From NCBI GenBank assembly GCA_030066135.1, contig JASJCD010000018.1:1-24980 (forward strand): a stretch of DNA of 24,980 bases, given 5' to 3'. Position 1 is the stretch's first letter; every line of letters begins with the position of its first letter. Origin of the DNA: Desulfobacterales bacterium. Lineage in GTDB: Bacteria; Desulfobacterota; Desulfobacteria; Desulfobacterales; UBA5852. Below are positions 836 to 24,835 of the stretch, piece by piece. Made by a program: the position numbers and the translations under genes. The notes under the pieces are model-generated. The model ran no database searches and had not been told where the DNA came from. It worked only from the letters and a program-made list of their open reading frames with translations.

Positions 836-2182
836 TCAGGCTTCCGGCAGCATGCTGCTCAGGGCCGCGCCCGCCAGCCCCAGAAACATCAGGATGCCGA
901 TCAGCCAGGGCAGCCCGATGAGCCCGGCTACGAAGCCCAGCGCGCCGAAGGCCAGGGCCACCAGACCGATGGACGAATTGGCAAAGGCCACAAACGTGGC
1001 CCGTCGCTCCGGATCGGCCCGGTCGATCAGGTAGGTCTTGCGCCCCAGCAGTACCCCTGCCTCTGCAAACCCCAGCAGCATGAAGATCGCAGCCGCCAGG
1101 TAAGGACTGCGCCAGGCGGGCGGCAGGAACCCGATGGCCAGCGCGCCCGCGCCGGTCAAGACGGCCATGATACCGCTCAGCACGAGCACCTTGCGACTGG
1201 ACAGGTCGGCAAAGCGCCCCCAGAAAGGGCTGCTCAGGGCGGCCGCCAGGCCGGCGGCGATGACGATGATGCCCAGGGTCTTGGACTGCCCGGGGAGCAG
1301 TTGCTTGATATAAAGCACGTAAAAAGGGGCGGCCAGCTCGACGGAAAGCAATGCCGCCCGCACGGCCAGAAAACGACGAAACCACGATTCCCGCCGCACG
1401 AACTGCAGGCCCGCCCGGACCTCACGGTAGGCATCGCGGCCGCCGGCCACCGCTCCCGGTGATTCCTTCATTCCTGCGAAGGCCAGGCCGGCAATCAGCC
1501 AGAGCACGGCACCCCCGAAAAGCAGCACCAGCGCGGGGTGCGTTTTCACGGTGTCGCTGAACGCGGCCCTGATCGCCAGGCCCACGCCGATGGTCAGCAA
1601 ACCACCGAGCATCCCGCGGACGGCCAGCAGCTTGCCCCGTCGTCCCTTGGGAATGGTCTTGCCGGTCACATCCTGGAAGGCCACCGATCCCACGCCACGA
1701 CAGACGCTGAAGACGAGCAGGGCGATGACAATGACCAGACCTGCGGCCGAGGGTGGCAGCAAAACGGCCGCCGCCACCATGGCCAGGAGCATCACCACCT
1801 GCACCATGGCCGCAACCACCCAGAACCACTTGCGAACGGGATAGCGGCGGATGCGCCCGGCCACGGCCAGCTGCGGCAGCAGGCTTCCGGTCTGCCGCAG
1901 GGGCAGCAGCAGGCCCACGAAAACCGGTGGCGCGCCCAGGGCGCCCAGCAGCCAGGGAAGGACAAGTTTCGCGCTGGCCACCTGTTCGGCCAGTTTGGAT
2001 GCGGCCCCGTTCAGGACATTGAGGACGAAATTGTGGGGCAGATTGGTGCACTCCTCCGGCGGAATATCCGTGCAGGCCCGCTCGGAGGTGTCCTCACCGC
2101 TCAAGCGCGCATAGATCGCTTCCACCCGACTGCGGCGGGCTTCGGCCTCGGGCAGGGGCGGCTTGTCCTGGATCGTGGTCAT
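836..2182 (-). CDS. MFS-type transporter (multi-pass membrane protein)
   Basis: 449-aa ORF, highly hydrophobic with about 12 predicted helices and a typical MFS-like composition. Start chosen at MTTIQDK, preceded by a perfect AGGAGG RBS (reverse complement of 2188-2193). The longer ORF start at 2233 was rejected. Confidence 0.8.
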   Translation of the reverse strand: MTTIQDKPPLPEAEARRSRVEAIYARLSGEDTSERACTDIPPEECTNLPHNFVLNVLNGAASKLAEQVASAKLVLPWLLGALGAPPVFVGLLLPLRQTGSLLPQLAVAGRIRRYPVRKWFWVVAAMVQVVMLLAMVAAAVLLPPSAAGLVIVIALLVFSVCRGVGSVAFQDVTGKTIPKGRRGKLLAVRGMLGGLLTIGVGLAIRAAFSDTVKTHPALVLLFGGAVLWLIAGLAFAGMKESPGAVAGGRDAYREVRAGLQFVRRESWFRRFLAVRAALLSVELAAPFYVLYIKQLLPGQSKTLGIIVIAAGLAAALSSPFWGRFADLSSRKVLVLSGIMAVLTGAGALAIGFLPPAWRSPYLAAAIFMLLGFAEAGVLLGRKTYLIDRADPERRATFVAFANSSIGLVALAFGALGFVAGLIGLPWLIGILMFLGLAGAALSSMLPEA

Positions 2183-2486
2183 GGCATCCTCCTGGTAAGG
2201 GGGCCGGTGGGCGACCAGCCGATGCGGGTTCAATCAGAAGCGCCGTTAACAGGTCAGGGCCGATTCACAAAGGCCCCGGGATCGGCGCCGGACAGGCCGT
2301 CGGTGTCCGGCCGCGGTCCGGATGGCCAAGTTCCGAAAGAGTTTTATTATCGTACAAGGATCTGCTATTCTGTTATTTTGTTAAACTGGCGGTTTGGGGC
2401 TGCTCCAGGCCTCGAAGACGTCAGCGGAGAAACGAAAACGCTTCGGTGCTACGGCGGTCTTGGCCGCCCAAAGAAAGCGAGTGAAT

Positions 2487-4661
2487 ATGCAAGCCGGTCA
2501 TCATAACCTGTGGACGACAGACTGGGAGGCCTACTGGACCGATGCGGCCCAGCGTGCCGTCCTGTTCACCGACATTTTACGCAAACGCGGCAATGTCTAT
2601 CTGGAACACCTGCTCAGCGACCAACCCCCCGTGCTGGTCTTCGATTACGAAACCATCCTGGACGGCCGCGATTTCGATCCGCCGGTCAACTATGCCCTGG
2701 TGCGAATCATCGATCGGCGGCGCGAAGGGCGGCCCGTACCTGGGGGCGCTGCCGCAGAAAGGCGGCACCAGGCATCGGTTGCCGTCGAGGCCCCCGAGGC
2801 GACGCGCCGTCCGATCGTCATTTTCGATCCGCGCGCCGGGCACGGTCCGGGCATCGGCGGCTCCAAGAAGGATTCCCAGATCGGCATGGCCCTGGATGCC
2901 GGCCACCCGGTCTATTTCCTGATCTTCTTCACCCGACCCGCGCCTGACCAGACCCTGTCCGATGTGCGCAATGCCCAGATCAAATTTGTCGAGGCGGTGC
3001 GCCAACGCCACCCCAACGCTCCCCGCCCGGCCATCATCGGCAACTGCCAGGGTGGGTGGGCCGCGGCCCTCGTGGGCGCCGAGCGACCCGATCTGGTAGG
3101 TCCGATGGTGTTTAACGGCTCCCCGCTTTCCTACTGGGGGGGCGTGGAAGGGGTCAACCCCATGCGCTACCTGGGCGGCCTGATTGGCGGTGTCTGGCTC
3201 AATTCCTTGCTCAGCGATCTGGGCCACGGCTACTTCGACGGGGCCAACCTGGTGGCCAATTTCGAAAACCTCAATCCGGCCAACACGCTCTGGACCAAGC
3301 TCTACCACGTTTACGCCAATGTGGATACGGAAGAAAAACGCTTCCTGGATTTCGAGAAGTGGTGGGGCGGTTTTTTTCTCATGACCGACCGGGAGATCCA
3401 CCAGATCGTCGACGGCCTTTTCGTGGGCAACAAACTCGAGCGGGGTGAATTCGAACTCGAGGCCGGCCGCCGGGTCGATCTGAAGAACAACGACAACCCG
3501 GTGGTCGTCTTTGCTTCCTTCGGGGACAACATAACCCCGCCCCAGCAGGCCTACAACTGGATCGTCAAGACCTACGGCACGGTCGAGGAGATCAAACGCC
3601 GCGGACAGGTGATCGTGGGCATCGGGCATTCGAAAATCGGCCACCTGGGCATCTTCGTTTCCGCCAAGATCGCCCGCAAGGAGCACAAGGAGATCATCGC
3701 CAGCTTCGATATGCTCCATTACCTGCCCCCCGGTCTCTACGAAATGCAGATCGAAGAGGAACCGGATGCGCCCGGTGAATATGCCGTGCGCTACGTCGAG
3801 AAATCCATGGACGATATCCTGGCCCTCGACGACGGACTGGAGGACGAGAAGGCCTTCCTGGCCGTGCGCCAGACCTCGGAGGTCAACGACCGCCTCTACC
3901 GCAGCCTCGTATCCCCCTGGATGCGCCTGGCGGTTCCCACGGGTATGGCTGAAACCATACGCCAGCTCCACCCCCTGCGCGTCCAGCGCTACATGCTCTC
4001 CGATCTGAACCCCTGGATGATTCCCATCAGGGCCTGGGCCGACGTTATTAAAAATAACGACCGCCGCCAGCCGGTGGGCGAGGACAACATCTATCGCATC
4101 TGGGAAAAGCGCATGTCCGACACGATCGTGGACGGGCTCAACCTCTACCGCGATATGCGCGACGCGGCCTGCGAGCTGATGTTTCAGACCATCTACGAAA
4201 GCCCCTGGATGAAGATGCTCTCGGACTTCGTGGGCCCCGTAGCCCCCCGCAACGACCAAGAACTCGAGGAGATGCGCCGGCGTGATGCCGAGCGCTGGCG
4301 CCGCCACATGACCACGGGCGAGTTCGAAGACGCCGTGGTGCGGATTTTCCTGGCCATCGGCTTTTCCGACCAGGTGGTGCGCCGCAAGGGTTACAAGGTC
4401 ATCGGCCGGCTGTTTGCCGATAACCCGCGGATGAGGGCCCTGGATCTCGATGACCTGCAGCAGATTGTGCGCGAGCAGTCCCGGATCGTGCAGACCGACG
4501 TGGATCAGGCCATCGAGCATCTGCCCCGGCTGCTGCCCCGGGGAAAAGATCGTCGGGAAGCCCTGGCCATGATCGCCGAGGCCGAACGCACGATCGGACG
4601 GCCCCTGGCCCCCCAGGAAGATGCCATGATCGAGCGGGTCCGAGGCGTCCTGGCCGCGTAA
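2487..4661 (+). CDS. DUF3141-family alpha/beta-hydrolase-fold protein (PHA-synthase-like large protein)
   Basis: 724 aa. Segments characteristic of DUF3141: NCQGGWAAALVGAERPDLVGPMVFNGSPLSYWGG and WTDAAQRAVLFTDILRKRGNVYLEH near the N-terminus. Start taken at MQAGHH (2487), not the upstream ATG at 2394. Confidence 0.7.
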   Translation: MQAGHHNLWTTDWEAYWTDAAQRAVLFTDILRKRGNVYLEHLLSDQPPVLVFDYETILDGRDFDPPVNYALVRIIDRRREGRPVPGGAAAERRHQASVAVEAPEATRRPIVIFDPRAGHGPGIGGSKKDSQIGMALDAGHPVYFLIFFTRPAPDQTLSDVRNAQIKFVEAVRQRHPNAPRPAIIGNCQGGWAAALVGAERPDLVGPMVFNGSPLSYWGGVEGVNPMRYLGGLIGGVWLNSLLSDLGHGYFDGANLVANFENLNPANTLWTKLYHVYANVDTEEKRFLDFEKWWGGFFLMTDREIHQIVDGLFVGNKLERGEFELEAGRRVDLKNNDNPVVVFASFGDNITPPQQAYNWIVKTYGTVEEIKRRGQVIVGIGHSKIGHLGIFVSAKIARKEHKEIIASFDMLHYLPPGLYEMQIEEEPDAPGEYAVRYVEKSMDDILALDDGLEDEKAFLAVRQTSEVNDRLYRSLVSPWMRLAVPTGMAETIRQLHPLRVQRYMLSDLNPWMIPIRAWADVIKNNDRRQPVGEDNIYRIWEKRMSDTIVDGLNLYRDMRDAACELMFQTIYESPWMKMLSDFVGPVAPRNDQELEEMRRRDAERWRRHMTTGEFEDAVVRIFLAIGFSDQVVRRKGYKVIGRLFADNPRMRALDLDDLQQIVREQSRIVQTDVDQAIEHLPRLLPRGKDRREALAMIAEAERTIGRPLAPQEDAMIERVRGVLAA

Positions 4662-17852: not shown

Positions 17853-18176
17853 GGGGGGCTAATACAGATTTTAAGGCCTCAGGTAGCTTCCCGTATGCTT
17901 GGTCGATCTGTTGGGGTTTGCTTTTTCCCCTTTGTAGGCACCGAGGCATTGAACGGAGCAGGCCCGCGGACTGTCTGAGCGCAGCGAGTTTCCGCGGGAC
18001 CCGTTCAATGCATTGACGCGCAGGATTAAGCGGGACACGGGCGGTTTCTTTTGGTTCGTTTTCTTTAACGCTAAAGAAAATGAACTAATCAAACCCTGAA
18101 GCCATGCTACGGACCGGTAGAACCTCTTCGAAGTCTCGACCAGAGGTGCAGGGTTTGGATCAAAACAAGCCTGACT
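17853..18176 (+). repeat. Repeat family A, full copy (about 320 bp), unclassified structured element
   Basis: About 85% identical to 21521-21832. Shared blocks: GCTTGGTC-ATCTGTTG, TTTTTCCCCTTTG, GACTGTCTGAGCGNAGCGAGTTTCCGCG, GGATTAAGCGGGACACGGGCGGTTTCTTTTGGTTCGTTTTCTTT, AAAGAAAATGAAC, ACCAGAG-TG-AGGGTTT-GATCA. Contains an AU-rich extended hairpin (GGTTTCTTTTGGTTCGTTTTCTTTA-ACGC-TAAAGAAAATGAACTAATCAAACC). Overlaps the 5' end of the ORF at 18104. Confidence 0.7.
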
Positions 18177-19020: not shown

Positions 19021-19271
19021 AGCTGATGTTCTCACGCCAAGCCGCTCAGCGCGACAGAAAACCTTATACCTCACGCAAAGTCGCTAAGCTCGCAAAGGAC
19101 AGCACGTTTATTTATCTTGGCCTCCGGTCAATGCAAACCATTTCAATTTCTGGATTTAATCAAATCAGAAATTGAAATATCTGTTCTTGAGTAGTGCTTT
19201 GCGCCTTTGCGCCTCCGCGTGAGATATGCTTTTTACAGTTTCCATGCGATACTTGGCGTCTTGGCGTGGGG
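19021..19271 (+). repeat. Repeat family B, copy 1 (about 250 bp structured palindromic element)
   Basis: 5' arm has two TCACGC(C)AAG-CGC-AAGC-type subrepeats. Small hairpin TTGGCC-TCC-GGTCAA (19117-19131). Long hairpin ATTTCAATTTCTGGATT-taatca-AATCAGAAATTGAAAT (19140-19179). 3' arm CTTTGCGCCTTTGCGCCTCCGCGTGAG plus CTTGGCGTCTTGGCGTGGGG is the imperfect reverse complement of the 5' arm. Starts 6 nt after the stop of the 2H gene and ends about 120 nt before the 19393 start. Confidence 0.7.
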
Positions 19272-19392
19272 CTATGCCGTTTTAAGTACCACGTGTCAGG
19301 TCGGACAAGCTTCAACCGACAAACTGTCAATGCACCGTTTAACGCATCAGCTCGCGCGAGCCTGAGCAGAATTTTGAAGGGAGTTTAGAGAG

Positions 19393-19890
19393 ATGAGAAT
19401 ACTAACCGCCATCATCGTATTGGCGTTTTGCGCCAGCGCCTATGGCAGCCAGACCGCACAGAATCCCGAGGAGGTCGGCAACGTCAACTGGGGGCGGGAT
19501 TTCGATGCGGCCCTCCAGATGAGCGCTGCCTCCGGCAAGCCCGTGCTGGTCCTGTTTCAGGAAGTTCCGGGCTGACCGGGGGTACGCGCGTTCGGCCGTG
19601 AAGTGCTGACCAACCCCCAGCTGGTAAAGGCCATCGAGGAAGAATTCATCCCGATGCTCGTCTACAACAACCGCAGCGGCGGCATGGACCGTGAACTGCT
19701 GGAGCGCTATGGCGAGCCCACCTGGAACTTTCAGGTGATCCGCTTTCTGGATGCCGAAGGAGAGGACATCATTCCCCGCAAGGACCGCGTCTGGACCACG
19801 AGCGGCGTGGCCCGGCGCATGGTCAAGACCCTCAGGGTCGTCAAACGCCCGGTGCCGGATTACCTGGAAAACCTCGCCGGAAACGAATGA
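19393..19890 (+). CDS. Periplasmic thioredoxin-fold protein (Thioredoxin_7 / DsbD-gamma-like) with in-frame TGA at 19573-19575: candidate selenoprotein, otherwise a nonsense-disrupted pseudogene
   Basis: Two track ORFs (19393-19575 and 19603-19890) are in the same frame, separated only by the TGA. The joined product is signal peptide (MRILTAIIVLAFCASAYG) + GKPVLVLFQEVPG-U-PGVRAF... + ...ELLERYGEPTWNFQVIRFLDAEGED. This aligns by eye to DsbD-gamma GKPVMLDLYADWCVACKEF...[22 protein letters not shown], with the TGA falling at the first Cys of the CxxC. RBS GAAGGGAG upstream. Confidence 0.55.
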
Positions 19891-20224
19891 CAACCCCTTC
19901 CCGAATCCGGATAGGTGCTAGAGCATATCGTCATCGGCGTCTCTTGTTTCCCCAGCGGGACGTCTACATGCACCCCCTTCCGACCGATGCTTCTGGTTCG
20001 CCTAAAAGGGTTCAAAATGATCGTAGAAGTCGGGCGTGCAAGGGGCCGGGGCATCGTCCCTGACAGGCGCGCATCGAGACCACCAGCGGTTAGGCTCAAC
20101 GAACAACCCAAAACCGTGGCAAACGCCCGGTTCCGGCTGACCTGCAAATCCTCGCAGGAATCCATTGACGGCATCCGTCAGATCAACACCGAGACCAAGG
20201 TGCCTATCAGGGACTGGTCTCTGC

Positions 20225-20431
20225 CTATTCCAGTTTAAAGGAGACTTTCAATTTGGTGCGATAGCCGACGATGCGGTTGTCCTCCAGGCGCATGTCCATT
20301 TGAACCACTTCCGCCACGCGGATGTCGCGAATGGAGCGGTCGACCGCACGCACGGCCGCCTTGGCTGCATCTTCCCAGGACTTTTCGGAAAACCCCACGA
20401 CTTCGATAACTTTGTAGACAGCATCATCCAT
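20225..20431 (-). CDS. Dodecin (small flavin-binding protein), 68 aa
   Basis: MDDAVYKVIEVVGFSEKSWEDAAKAAVRAVDRSIRDIRVAEVVQMDMRLEDNRIVGYRTKLKVSFKLE fits the dodecin family pattern (YKVIExVGxSxxSWEDA...LRDLRVAEV...YR.KLKVSF.LE). RBS GGAAAGGAG before the ATG. The track ORF 20225-21217 is an artefactual upstream extension. Confidence 0.8.
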   Translation of the reverse strand: MDDAVYKVIEVVGFSEKSWEDAAKAAVRAVDRSIRDIRVAEVVQMDMRLEDNRIVGYRTKLKVSFKLE

Positions 20432-21308: not shown

Positions 21309-21520
21309 AGCAGCATAGTCGTCCCCGCAACCAATCTCAAAAATAATCCAAGTGCCCCTATATGCGTTATGATCCTACTCTTGGCAAAACCGTAGGGTCC
21401 CTGCCCTGCGAACCTGCATACATGTTAAATGCATGCTCCGCTTTCTCGTCGTCTCACGCCTTGCCAGGAACCCTAAGCTTAAATATGAGATAGGTTCTCT
21501 GTAAGGCTTCTTACGCAGAG

Positions 21521-21832
21521 CGGGGGGCCCCAGCTAGCCGCCCACAGGGGGCTTGGTCAATCTGTTGAGGTATAGGTTTTTCCCCTTTGTCCCGCGCCGA
21601 GCATCGACACGGCGGGCGGAATCAGCGCGCGGACTTGTCTGAGCGAAGCGAGTTTCCGCGCGCGCCGCTCGTTGGGGCGACGCACAGGATTAAGCGGGAC
21701 ACGGGCGGTTTCTTTTGGTTCGTTTTCTTTGCCGGGAAAGAAAATGAACAAACATAACAATAAAATCAGATCACGGATCGGTCCAAACTCGCTGGGTCCT
21801 CCACCAGAGATGGAGGGTTTAGATCACGACTA
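21521..21832 (+). repeat. Repeat family A, full copy 2 (about 310 bp)
   Basis: See 17853-18176. Hairpin loop differs (GCCGGG versus ACGC) with stems preserved. A distal hairpin CCTCCA-ccagaga-TGGAGG replaces CCTCT-tcgaagtctcgacc-AGAGG, keeping ACCAGAG in the loop. Lies between the DUF2459 and PEBP genes. Confidence 0.7.
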
Positions 21833-21864
21833 AACATGGGCGTCCTGTTGATGCGGCCCGGCGG

Positions 21865-22908: not shown

Positions 22909-23106
22909 ATCACGCCAGACCGCAAAGCGCGACAGAAAACTTTATATTGGACGCCAAGCCGCGAAGCTCGCAAAGAAAATCAAAAGTTTTTATTTGGCCT
23001 CCGGCCAATGCAAACGGTTACCTTTTCTGGAATCGGAAGATTCAGAAAAGGTAACAATCCGTTCTTAAGCAGTTCTTTGCGCCTTTGCGACTCCGCGTGA
23101 GGAATG
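22909..23106 (+). repeat. Repeat family B, copy 2 (about 200 bp)
   Basis: TCACGCCAGACCGCAAAGCGCGACAG + GGACGCCAAGCCGCGAAGCTCGCAAAG arm. Small hairpin TTGGCC-TCC-GGCCAA (22994-23008). Long hairpin GTTACCTTTTCTGGAATC-ggaa-GATTCAGAAAAGGTAAC (23027-23055). 3' arm CTTTGCGCCTTTGCGACTCCGCGTGAGG. About 190 nt upstream of the 23295 gene. Confidence 0.7.
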
Positions 23107-23294
23107 CAGTTACCCGGCCCCGGGCCGGAGCCCCCGCCATTTCCCGGACCTTGAACCAGGATCATCATAGAGCCGCAGCCCCCGTTTTCCGGAATAAACC
23201 TGACTTGTTGACTTGACAGGTTTTTCGTCCTACACACGATATGTCTCCACGTGATGGCAACGATTGCTTATAGACCCTTTTTCTGTCAGCCGGC

Positions 23295-23675: not shown

Positions 23676-23717
23676 GTCGATCCGTCCCCTCGCCTCCATG
23701 AGGCCGCCAAGCCTGAA

Positions 23718-24022
23718 AAGAAAGACAACTCCAAAGCTCACGCCAAGCCGCAAAGCTCGCAATGGAAAGCTATTGGTTTTAGTTCCTCGGTCGCAGACCG
23801 ATGCAAGCCGTTACCTTTTCTGGAATCCAAAGGATTCAGAAAAGGTAACTATCTGTTCTTAGGCAGTTCTTTGCGCCTTTGCGTCTTTGCGTGAGGCATG
23901 CTGTTAGCAGTTTCAACTTGGTCCCTGGAGCATTAGCGTCTGTCGTCTCCGCGTGAGATATGCTTCTCGCAGTTACTATGCAGTTCGCGGTGTATTCGCG
24001 TGAGGTAAGGGAAGGTAAAGGC
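23718..24022 (+). repeat. Repeat family B, copy 3 (about 300 bp)
   Basis: GAAAGACAACTCCAAAGCTCACGCCAAGCCGCAAAGCTCGCAA arm. Small hairpin TCGGTC-GCA-GACCGA (23787-23801), a different sequence giving the same structure. Long hairpin GTTACCTTTTCTGGAATCC-aaa-GGATTCAGAAAAGGTAAC (23810-23849). 3' arm has three GCGTGAG subrepeats and ends GTGAGGTAAGGGAAGG. Starts 43 nt after the 23675 stop and ends at the stop of the convergent 24043 gene. Confidence 0.7.
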
Positions 24023-24474: not shown

Positions 24475-24513
24475 ACTTACCTTTCCATATCTTCGATTAA
24501 CTGACAGCTAACA

Positions 24514-24835
24514 GAGAAAGACAACTTCAGGTTTCACGCCAAGCCGCAAAGCACGCCAGAAAAGCAACAACATTTCTCACGCAAAGCCGCCAAGCCCGCA
24601 AAAAAAACCAATATGTTATCTTTCGGCCTTCGGCCGAAGCATCCCGTTACCTTTTCTGGAATCCAACGGATTCAGAAAAGGTAACAATCTGTTCGCAGCC
24701 GTTCTTTGCGCCTTAGCGTCTTTGCGTGACAAATATGGCCGTTAATGCTTTATCTGCGTTCATCTGTGTCAATCTGCGGCCAACTAATCTGTTCTTGTGC
24801 CTCAGCATCATGGCGTGAGGCAAGGGAAAAAAAAG
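24514..24835 (+). repeat. Repeat family B, copy 4 (about 320 bp)
   Basis: AGAGAAAGACAACTTCAGGTTTCACGCCAAGCCGCAAAGCACGCC + TCACGCAAAGCCGCCAAGCCCGCAAAAAAAA arm. Small hairpin TTCGGCC-TTC-GGCCGAA (24622-24638). Long hairpin GTTACCTTTTCTGGAATCC-aac-GGATTCAGAAAAGGTAAC (24646-24685). 3' arm CTTTGCGCCTTAGCGTCTTTGCGTGAC ... CATGGCGTGAGGCAAGGGAAAAAAAAGGGG. About 40 nt upstream of the divergent start of the 24474 gene. Confidence 0.7.

Follow-up and report, generated by a model that had tools for sequence, protein, structure and literature searches.

What is the structured, non-coding element of about 320 base pairs (bp) that occurs twice in a 24,980-nucleotide (nt) stretch of a Desulfobacterales genome (contig JASJCD010000018.1 of assembly GCA_030066135.1; the whole stretch is called the window below), and how did it come to lie there? 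The initial annotation of the window could assign it to no known RNA or mobile-element family and offered three possibilities: a small RNA (sRNA) family or 5′ leader, a non-autonomous mobile element, or a recombination site. We find that the element belongs to a previously undescribed family of repeats, here termed family A, and that the second possibility fits best, given the unrelated intergenic sites of the copies, the occurrence of filled and empty sites, and the decay of orthologous copies. The reading that we favour, with about even confidence, is that family A comprises lineage-restricted, non-coding, non-autonomous interspersed repeats whose core fold is selected at the level of the family and whose orientation is fixed at replication forks.

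A search for further copies, which the initial annotation had proposed, shows the family to be multi-copy and dispersed across genomes. A 25-nt pattern from the core of the element has 62 exact matches at 61 loci in ~18 species-level assemblies, with up to ~10 per assembly, and nearly all of these assemblies are Desulfobacterales or Desulfobacteraceae metagenome-assembled genomes (MAGs). An independent 20-nt motif from the opposite end of the core identifies at least 120 further metagenome loci, and searching all the retrieved DNA with profiles yields 204 copies after merging, often 5–10 or more per genome. The flanks of the copies are unrelated, save at orthologous loci of related genomes. 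Rfam 15 contains no match to the element, either for the whole window at the gathering threshold or for 18 related loci; a permissive regional search returned only chance microRNA hairpin matches on the AT-rich hairpin C described below. Viral contigs contain no match to the core pattern and two to a rod motif, both chance matches inside GC-rich coding sequence, and plasmid and phage collections contain no match to the element. Judged by these searches, family A is restricted to a clade of sulfate-reducer-related bacteria. Literature searches found no earlier description of it and, on replication-polar repeats, nothing relevant except papers on IS200/IS605 and REP elements.

The two annotated copies, A1 and A2, were recovered in the same orientation by both a repeat search and an nhmmer profile built on ten full-length relatives, and the window contains two additional, partial copies. 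The features are as follows.

21499/21500 to 21833/21834, + strand: copy A2, full length (nhmmer profile positions 2–336, score 342)
21499–21581, + strand: module A of A2, an optional 5′ extension of ~85 nt with two hairpins (seed alignment)
21582–21705, + strand: rod B of A2 (folds, covariation counts)
21709–21749, + strand: module C of A2, the U-tract TTTCTTTTGG and the 13-bp AT-rich hairpin C (GTTCGTTTTCTTT-GCCGGG-AAAGAAAATGAAC)
21750–21834, + strand: A-rich linker and module D of A2, with hairpin CCTCCACC-AGA-GATGGAGG and terminus GATCACGACTAA(A)
17873 to 18167/18168, + strand: copy A1, slightly damaged (nhmmer profile positions 26–334)
584–724, + strand: copy A3, 3′ half only, with the 3′ strand of helix P1, the U-tract, hairpin C and module D (profile positions 181–335; covariance model)
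16078–16105 (28 nt), + strand: remnant of a fourth copy, limited to the 3′ end of module D (GATGCGGAGAAATTTGAAACC; found by comparison with a syntenic contig)

The full element spans ~335–360 nt, from (C)AGTGAGGCTCCTCCCGCAGAGCGGGAGGCC... to ...CCTCCACCAGAGGTGGAGGGTTTAGATCnnnACTAA, and is modular, with a core of ~175–190 nt (the rod, then the U-tract and AT-rich hairpin) and optional 5′ and 3′ modules. Rod B is an irregular rod of ~60 bp. Its helix P1 (CCC/GGG plus UGUCCCGC/GCGGGACA) encloses the conserved internal loops GCCGAGCAUCG and CGACGCGCAGGAUnAA, inside which lie a variable, covarying long helix, GCGCGCGGA/UCCGCGCGC, and an apex that is either a GCGAAGC-type mini-hairpin, as in A2, or a longer CCCGCC-tetraloop-GGCGGG hairpin. 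The U-tract reads …UCUUUUGG across the family, and TCTTTTG is kept in copies found via a different motif. The loop of the AAAGAAAATGAAC hairpin is variable, as annotated. A triple helix, with the U-tract TTTCTTTT parallel-matched to the AAAGAAAA strand of hairpin C, was considered but is no more than speculative: covariation favours the 13-bp extended hairpin, after which a linker of only 2 nt is left, and the U-tract varies at its first positions. Module A, found in about half of the copies, forms two hairpins in A2 (CTTACGC-AGA-GCGGGGGG-like and GCCGCCC..GGGGGC). The module D hairpin, CCTCCACC-AGA-GGTGGAGG, lies ~17 nt before the 3′ end and is a direct repeat of the CCTCCCGC-AGA-GCGGGAGG hairpin of module A; the 'CCTCT...AGAGG' hairpin initially drawn in the first copy is a mis-registered version of it, the family hairpin being damaged in A1. 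Some copies (in L001, L023, L028, L047, L048 and L059) carry a conserved optional insert of ~140 nt inside rod B, with its own closing stem CAACCGGTCGATGAAGC...GCTTCAACGnCCGGTTG; this insert adds a branch to the rod on its 3′ side and has no Rfam match.

A covariance model of the core, run over the whole window, matches A2 (21581–21755, 171.8 bits), A1 (17918–18091, 128.6 bits, with unpaired positions in P1) and A3, and nothing else convincing. In A1 the first ~25 nt of the element are gone, and the 5′ strand of P1 is mutated (TGTAGGCA where TGTCCCGC is expected). The first copy had been placed at 17853–18176; homology extends from 17873 to ~18168, and the first ~20 nt are not homologous to A2. 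The two copies are also less alike than the ~85% identity originally given, agreeing at 78% of 292 aligned positions (74% when gaps are included). As first observed, they have no ORF (open reading frame) in common and no terminal inverted repeats.

The modules are separable. Of the 77 non-redundant copies in which the core is intact, both A and D are found in 25 and neither in 36 (39 by a narrower count), and the remaining 16 carry a single one of these modules or a rarer 5′-module variant; some copies are reduced to P1, a short closing loop and module C. Core identity to the consensus is 89.6% in copies lacking A and D and 91.7% in the long forms. Module-less copies thus have cores as conserved as those of long forms, and their unique flanks bear no remnant of A, from which we conclude that propagation or selection acts on the core as a unit.

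The fold of this core is preserved by compensatory change. In a first set of 50 copies, aligned with MAFFT and assigned the consensus of single-sequence folds, 88.7% of cells pair and 153 cells are compensatory, compared with 54 in shuffles (none of 500 reached the observed count; slid controls at most 71). In a second and independent set, comprising 77 metagenome copies whose alignment to the covariance model itself favours the structure, 91.2% of cells pair, 36 of 63 pairs show double changes and 358 cells are compensatory, compared with 107 in shuffles (again 0 of 500 as high; slid controls at most 72). Agreement with the model-fitted covariation comes from the MAFFT set, from the slid controls and from swaps that can be seen by eye, such as U-A to C-G to A-U in P1 and GCGCGCGGA to GCGUGUCGG to GUCUCGCGGA. 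Hairpin C covaries at 10 of 14 pairs (for example CG..UG to AC..GU). The compensated stems that the initial annotation saw between the window copies are real, in both CATTGAACGG/CCGTTCAATG versus CGGCGGGCGG/CCGCTCG... and GCCCGCGGA/TCCGCGGG versus GCGCGCGGA/TCCGCGCGC.

The pairing also has a strand. On the + strand the core contains 199 G-U pairs versus 62 A-C, whereas modules A and D contain 264 G-U and 333 A-C with few compensatory changes, G-U being about equal to A-C in module A. The + strand is the one on which G-to-A change should dominate, and neutral decay predicts an excess of A-C. The G-U excess of the core runs against this local mutational bias, and therefore indicates that the + strand is selected to fold, either as RNA or as single-stranded DNA (ssDNA). 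Folded as ssDNA, the + strand reaches –43.2 kcal/mol (z –2.6) and the – strand –36.4 kcal/mol (z –1.1). On the favoured reading, the core fold on the + strand is maintained by selection at the family level, and individual copies drift and lose pieces. The original suggestion of selection on single-strand structure, beyond a simple local duplication, is borne out by the covariation and by multi-copy dispersal.

In three informative orthologous pairs the element is 96%, 85% and 75% identical, compared with 93–98%, 89% and 71–75% for the respective flanks; the element is no more conserved than its surroundings, and selection at each locus was rejected on this basis. Several orthologous copies lack P1 or most of the rod. 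Copies are also present at sites that are empty in relatives. Contig L149 has a copy that L085 lacks, between flanks that are 90–93% identical. In two syntenic contigs with 80–86% identity to the window, L186 and L189, 9 nt stand in place of window positions 21327–21834, which comprise A2 and a 173-nt segment with a unit resembling a second repeat family (B, below). The L186 empty site was used to set the 3′ junction of A2. Neither the L149/L085 nor the A2/L186 comparison reveals a target duplication. Orthologues of A1 are present in contigs L187 and L190.

Family A copies are oriented with respect to replication. The flanks have negative GC skew on the element strand at 100 of 134 loci (p = 1e-8). 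The polarity is not an artefact of gene orientation, because co- and anti-oriented genes differ in their coding-strand skew at third codon positions (GC3 skew –0.166 versus –0.078, p ~1e-32); 57% of genes are anti-oriented to the element. A measure corrected for gene orientation is negative at 106 of 125 loci (p = 8e-16) and at 93–97% of loci with more data. It holds in every class of copy (long 32/33, core-only 21/21, 5′-truncated 13/13) and in both data sources (46/48 and 38/42), and the window itself fits, at –0.037. At least two profile hits in a single orientation occur at 44 loci, some of these being split hits of one element, and both orientations occur at one locus. In a genome scan, multi-copy contigs shorter than ~1.4 Mb were strand-uniform, and copies on both strands were found in two multi-Mb contigs. 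For ~95% of copies, then, the folded strand is the C-rich strand. The leading strand is usually G-rich and bears most genes; by the usual rule, the folded strand is the lagging-strand sequence. At the sole locus with opposed copies (L085), these lie at 585–880 (–) and 1885–2157 (+), 1 kb apart on a 561-kb contig, and might mark an origin, a terminus or a local inversion.

By a codon-usage gene caller the copies are intergenic, between tandem genes in 111 cases, convergent genes in 32 and divergent genes in 13, and their orientation to adjacent genes is mixed (62 antisense-tandem, 49 sense-tandem). Clustering of ORFs and called genes within 2.5–3.5 kb of ~190 loci gave no recurrent neighbouring protein, and an adjacent transposase, reverse transcriptase or nuclease was rejected, the clusters being only large paralogous families at inconsistent positions. 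Neither Y1 nor TnpB adjoins any of the ~200 copies in the adjacent regions scanned, or occurs in the window. No inverted repeat pairs bracket A1 or A2, the termini being (C)AGTGAGG... and ...AAAACTAA. The ...ACTA end is followed by A in ~75% of copies, and this A is probably part of the element itself. Both ends of the element are subject to truncation, without the 5′ excess that would be a signature of reverse transcription.

The most economical account of these observations is an element that is, or formerly was, mobilised in trans, for which we infer both an intermediate and an enzyme. An enzyme encoded elsewhere would copy or move the element, through an ssDNA or RNA intermediate taken up at replication forks; this uptake would fix the orientation of the copies, and the core fold would be needed for propagation or persistence. 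Possible forms of the mobile species are a core RNA, a core ssDNA of + sense, or an active – strand DNA of the Y1 type accompanied by a + strand core RNA. A bolder version, which we consider somewhat unlikely, is that family A represents a new class of replication-fork-coupled element, in which a ~180-nt rod-plus-hairpin single strand, RNA or DNA, is copied in such that the folded strand is always the lagging-strand sequence. Endonuclease-less group II introns have a polarity like that of IS200/IS605, and, if the folded strand is the active one, the polarity of such a class would be the mirror image of both. Possible routes would include a switch of template by the nascent leading strand to a copy made of RNA or ssDNA, or the building of a + sense single strand into lagging-strand DNA.

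Several points weigh against this account. The searches identified no mobilising enzyme. Neither a target motif nor a recurrent duplication is seen at 80 5′ junctions and 71 3′ junctions; the check for target-site duplications proposed at the outset likewise found none at the copy boundaries. With neither target duplication, target motif nor inverted termini, no known transposition chemistry is implicated. Presence/absence rests on two cases, neither with a clean junction, and a third, at 16078–16105 between rtcB and the SPFH gene, where L187 has a mini copy of ~122 nt, is a deletion and not an insertion. That copies drift like their flanks rests on the three informative pairs above, and the high core conservation in copies lacking A and D could reflect selection per locus for a host function. 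The lagging-strand assignment follows from the general GC-skew rule and not from mapped origins. In IS200/IS605 elements the active top strand lies on the lagging-strand template, the G-rich strand (PMC5027513), and the polarity of the folded strand of family A is opposite to that of this top strand, if the folded strand is active.

The alternative that survives best, which we consider somewhat unlikely, is that the copies are host-functional paralogous sRNA genes or RNA elements of untranslated regions, in which a ~180-nt rod-plus-hairpin RNA interacts with a protein or with further RNAs, and the number of copies is a matter of dosage or of diversified regulation and not of selfish spread. 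The predominance of G-U over A-C on one strand is RNA-like, many copies have GNRA-type apical loops, the unpaired internal loops are very strongly conserved in sequence, and cores are ~90% identical even without flanking modules. Some copies would be co-transcribed, having a stop codon on one side and a terminator on the other; A3, whose start coincides with the stop codon of the Fe-S protein gene at 35–586, is an example. However, the three window copies have no consensus sigma-70-type promoter or intrinsic terminator inside them or at their ends, and the orientation to neighbouring genes is mixed. Transcription of ~95% of copies would also run head-on against replication, an uncommon arrangement for RNA genes. 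The rod or P1 has been lost from orthologous copies in some lineages, and P1 is broken in A1 itself.

It is unlikely, and less probable than an sRNA function, that family A is a non-autonomous, PATE-like element of the IS200/IS605 (HUH Y1) type, with the A and D hairpins as its left and right ends and the – strand of the window as the active strand, on the lagging-strand template. Family A shares with IS200/IS605 elements and PATEs the absence of inverted termini and target duplications and a structured internal segment, which in PATEs is an omega-RNA scaffold. In long forms the subterminal hairpins of modules A and D resemble each other in direct orientation and show few compensatory changes. 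Near-absolute replication polarity is typical of IS200/IS605 (PMC5027513), but that of family A would fit only if the – strand is the active one, and the A and D hairpins are slightly richer in A-C than in G-U on the + strand (333 versus 264). By contrast, no conserved tetra- or pentanucleotide target lies beside either end, about half of the copies lack A and D yet keep the core and its polarity (21/21), the covariation and strand asymmetry lie in the core and on the opposite strand, and no TnpA or TnpB gene adjoins a copy in the regions scanned. A single gene of Y1_Tnp (PF01797) plus DnaA_C-like type is present in the related contig L184, which is syntenic with the PEBP region of the window, but it lies near repeats resembling family B and not near family A. 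A distant homologue of this gene is located 6 kb from a copy in L113.

Still less probable is a polar chromosomal element acting as DNA in replication, recombination or chromosome organisation, by a logic like that of Chi, KOPS or fork-associated structures, with orientation set by selection. The ~95% polarity in every size class and the better folding of the + than of the – strand as ssDNA are consistent with this idea, and the apical GCGAAGC/GCGCAGC resembles d(GCGNAGC), which we take to be a very stable DNA mini-hairpin. However, the folding strand would be the least exposed single-stranded template, that of the leading strand, copies are freely lost or truncated between close relatives, we identified no short polar word, and a covarying structure of 180 nt far exceeds the needs of known polar motifs.

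A local segmental duplication confined to the window, or a leader that regulates the 2H phosphoesterase gene in cis, would account for two copies in the same orientation 3.6 kb apart, one of them just upstream of that gene, but is excluded for practical purposes by hundreds of copies at unrelated loci in many genomes, by flanks that are not duplicated and by the unrelated neighbours of the other copies. The same mixed orientation and unrelated neighbours dispose of the annotated 5′ leader. A1 had been said to run straight into the start of the 2H gene; the ATG of the longest ORF (18104) does overlap it, but homologues imply a start at ~18209 or ~18317, beyond the end of the element at ~18168. 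No copy in the window is a regulator specific to its adjacent gene.

Family A resembles REP/REPIN sequences (moved by RAYT, a Y1 HUH protein) in being non-coding, intergenic, multi-copy, lineage-restricted and mostly vertical, in folding as a single strand and decaying in place, and in serving as a target for IS110-family insertion (L023, L060). REPINs, however, are inverted doublets of 20–40-nt palindromes, ~70–150 nt in total, that flank a RAYT gene, whereas family A is an asymmetric 180–340 nt with a long covarying rod, no inverted doublet and no RAYT beside any copy; a REPIN/RAYT system was rejected on these grounds. BOX, ERIC and similar repeats of Gram-positive bacteria and enterobacteria are likewise modular with variable modules, intergenic and predicted to fold stably, with no known mobiliser and possible co-transcription, but have no sequence relationship to family A, which has a much longer covarying helix, an RNA-like strand asymmetry and near-absolute polarity. 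Literature searches found no report of replication polarity in BOX, ERIC or similar repeats.

Like Helitron/IS91 elements, family A lacks inverted termini and target duplications, and its 3′ ...CTAA fits CTRR with a GC-rich hairpin ~17 nt upstream, a weak likeness. Its 5′ end is (C)AGTGAGG and not TC, there is no A|T or GTTC/CTTG context, and no Rep/Hel or Y2 gene was found near the copies, which led us to reject rolling-circle transposition of this kind. The HEARO omega-RNA of IscB and the OMEGA guide RNAs are also structured, a few hundred nt long and present in many copies, often without a coding partner nearby, but family A has no Rfam HEARO match and no consistent IscB, TnpB or IS110 neighbour, and the IS110 elements seen are inserted in it, antisense. 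A miniature inverted-repeat transposable element of the DDE cut-and-paste type was rejected for want of terminal inverted repeats and target-site duplication. A retron, group II intron or other reverse transcriptase-linked RNA was rejected in view of the lack of a recurrent adjacent ORF, of an Rfam intron or retron match and of a 5′-truncation excess. In lifestyle, then, family A resembles REPIN, PATE and BOX-type repeats, and it lacks the features that define REPINs and the conserved target motif of IS200/IS605 derivatives.

Family A copies also receive insertions. An IS110-family insertion sequence (IS) encoding 376 amino acids (DEDD_Tnp_IS110 plus Transposase_20) is inserted antisense in the loop of hairpin C at L023 1541–2873 and at the orthologous L060 site, and an IS5/IS1182-like DDE element occupies the same spot at L113 ~1827–3733. 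The large insertions that split these three copies were considered as coding parts of the element and rejected, being IS elements inserted in hairpin C. The family A repeat thus appears to serve as an IS insertion target. Locus L010, which has two repeat copies, also contains a c-di-GMP-I riboswitch (85–181, – strand, 57.2 bits), probably unrelated to the repeat.

The window contains a second repeat family, B, at 19032–19273, 22910–23145, 23699–24001 and 24503–24822, with a B-like unit within 21429–21498. Family B has inverted CACGCAAAG / CTTTGCGTGA-type units around a central palindrome, GTTACCTTTTCTGGAATC..GATTCAGAAAAGGTAAC, and is kept at orthologous sites in L186, L187 and L189. It is this family, and not family A, that has the REPIN-like layout in the window.

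The gene order around A1 is rtcR, a tRNA-like gene, rtcB, the SPFH gene, A1 and the 2H phosphoesterase gene; that around A2 is dodecin, DUF2459, A2 and PEBP. An exact-sequence lookup of the window's DUF2459 protein matched no record. The tRNA-like gene (14403–14480, +) lies between rtcR (12429–14039, –) and rtcB (14739–16076, +), in the leader of the RtcR-regulated RNA-repair cluster (rtcB, SPFH, 2H phosphoesterase). It has the unusual anticodon AUU (ARAGORN call tRNA-Asn(att)) and scores 43.9 bits against the Rfam tRNA model in a regional search, but is unlisted by the whole-window search at the gathering threshold. Elsewhere in the window, a 50-nt direct repeat, 82% identical (19842–19891 and 20120–20169), lies at the 3′ ends of two adjacent small ORFs (19603–19890 and 19915–20238) without a Pfam match, suggesting that these are tandem paralogues.

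To our knowledge, few bacterial interspersed repeats have a known biology (REP/REPIN, BOX, ERIC, Correia and PATE), and most of these were, as far as we know, described long before their mobiliser or function came to light. Family A combines three features: very strong covariation with an RNA-like strand signature, modularity in which the core can stand alone, and a near-complete polarity opposite to that of the known single-strand transposons. As a practical matter, its copies mark strand and replichore in fragmented Desulfobacterales MAGs, and at least one IS110-family element uses them as a programmed site of insertion. If the polarity reflects function, family A would be a new polar chromosomal element or a family of RNAs transcribed head-on to replication. 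If it instead reflects the mechanism of insertion, it would point to an unrecognised form of DNA writing at replication forks, and a fork-coupled class of element would imply an undescribed route of mobilisation and an undiscovered enzyme acting in trans.

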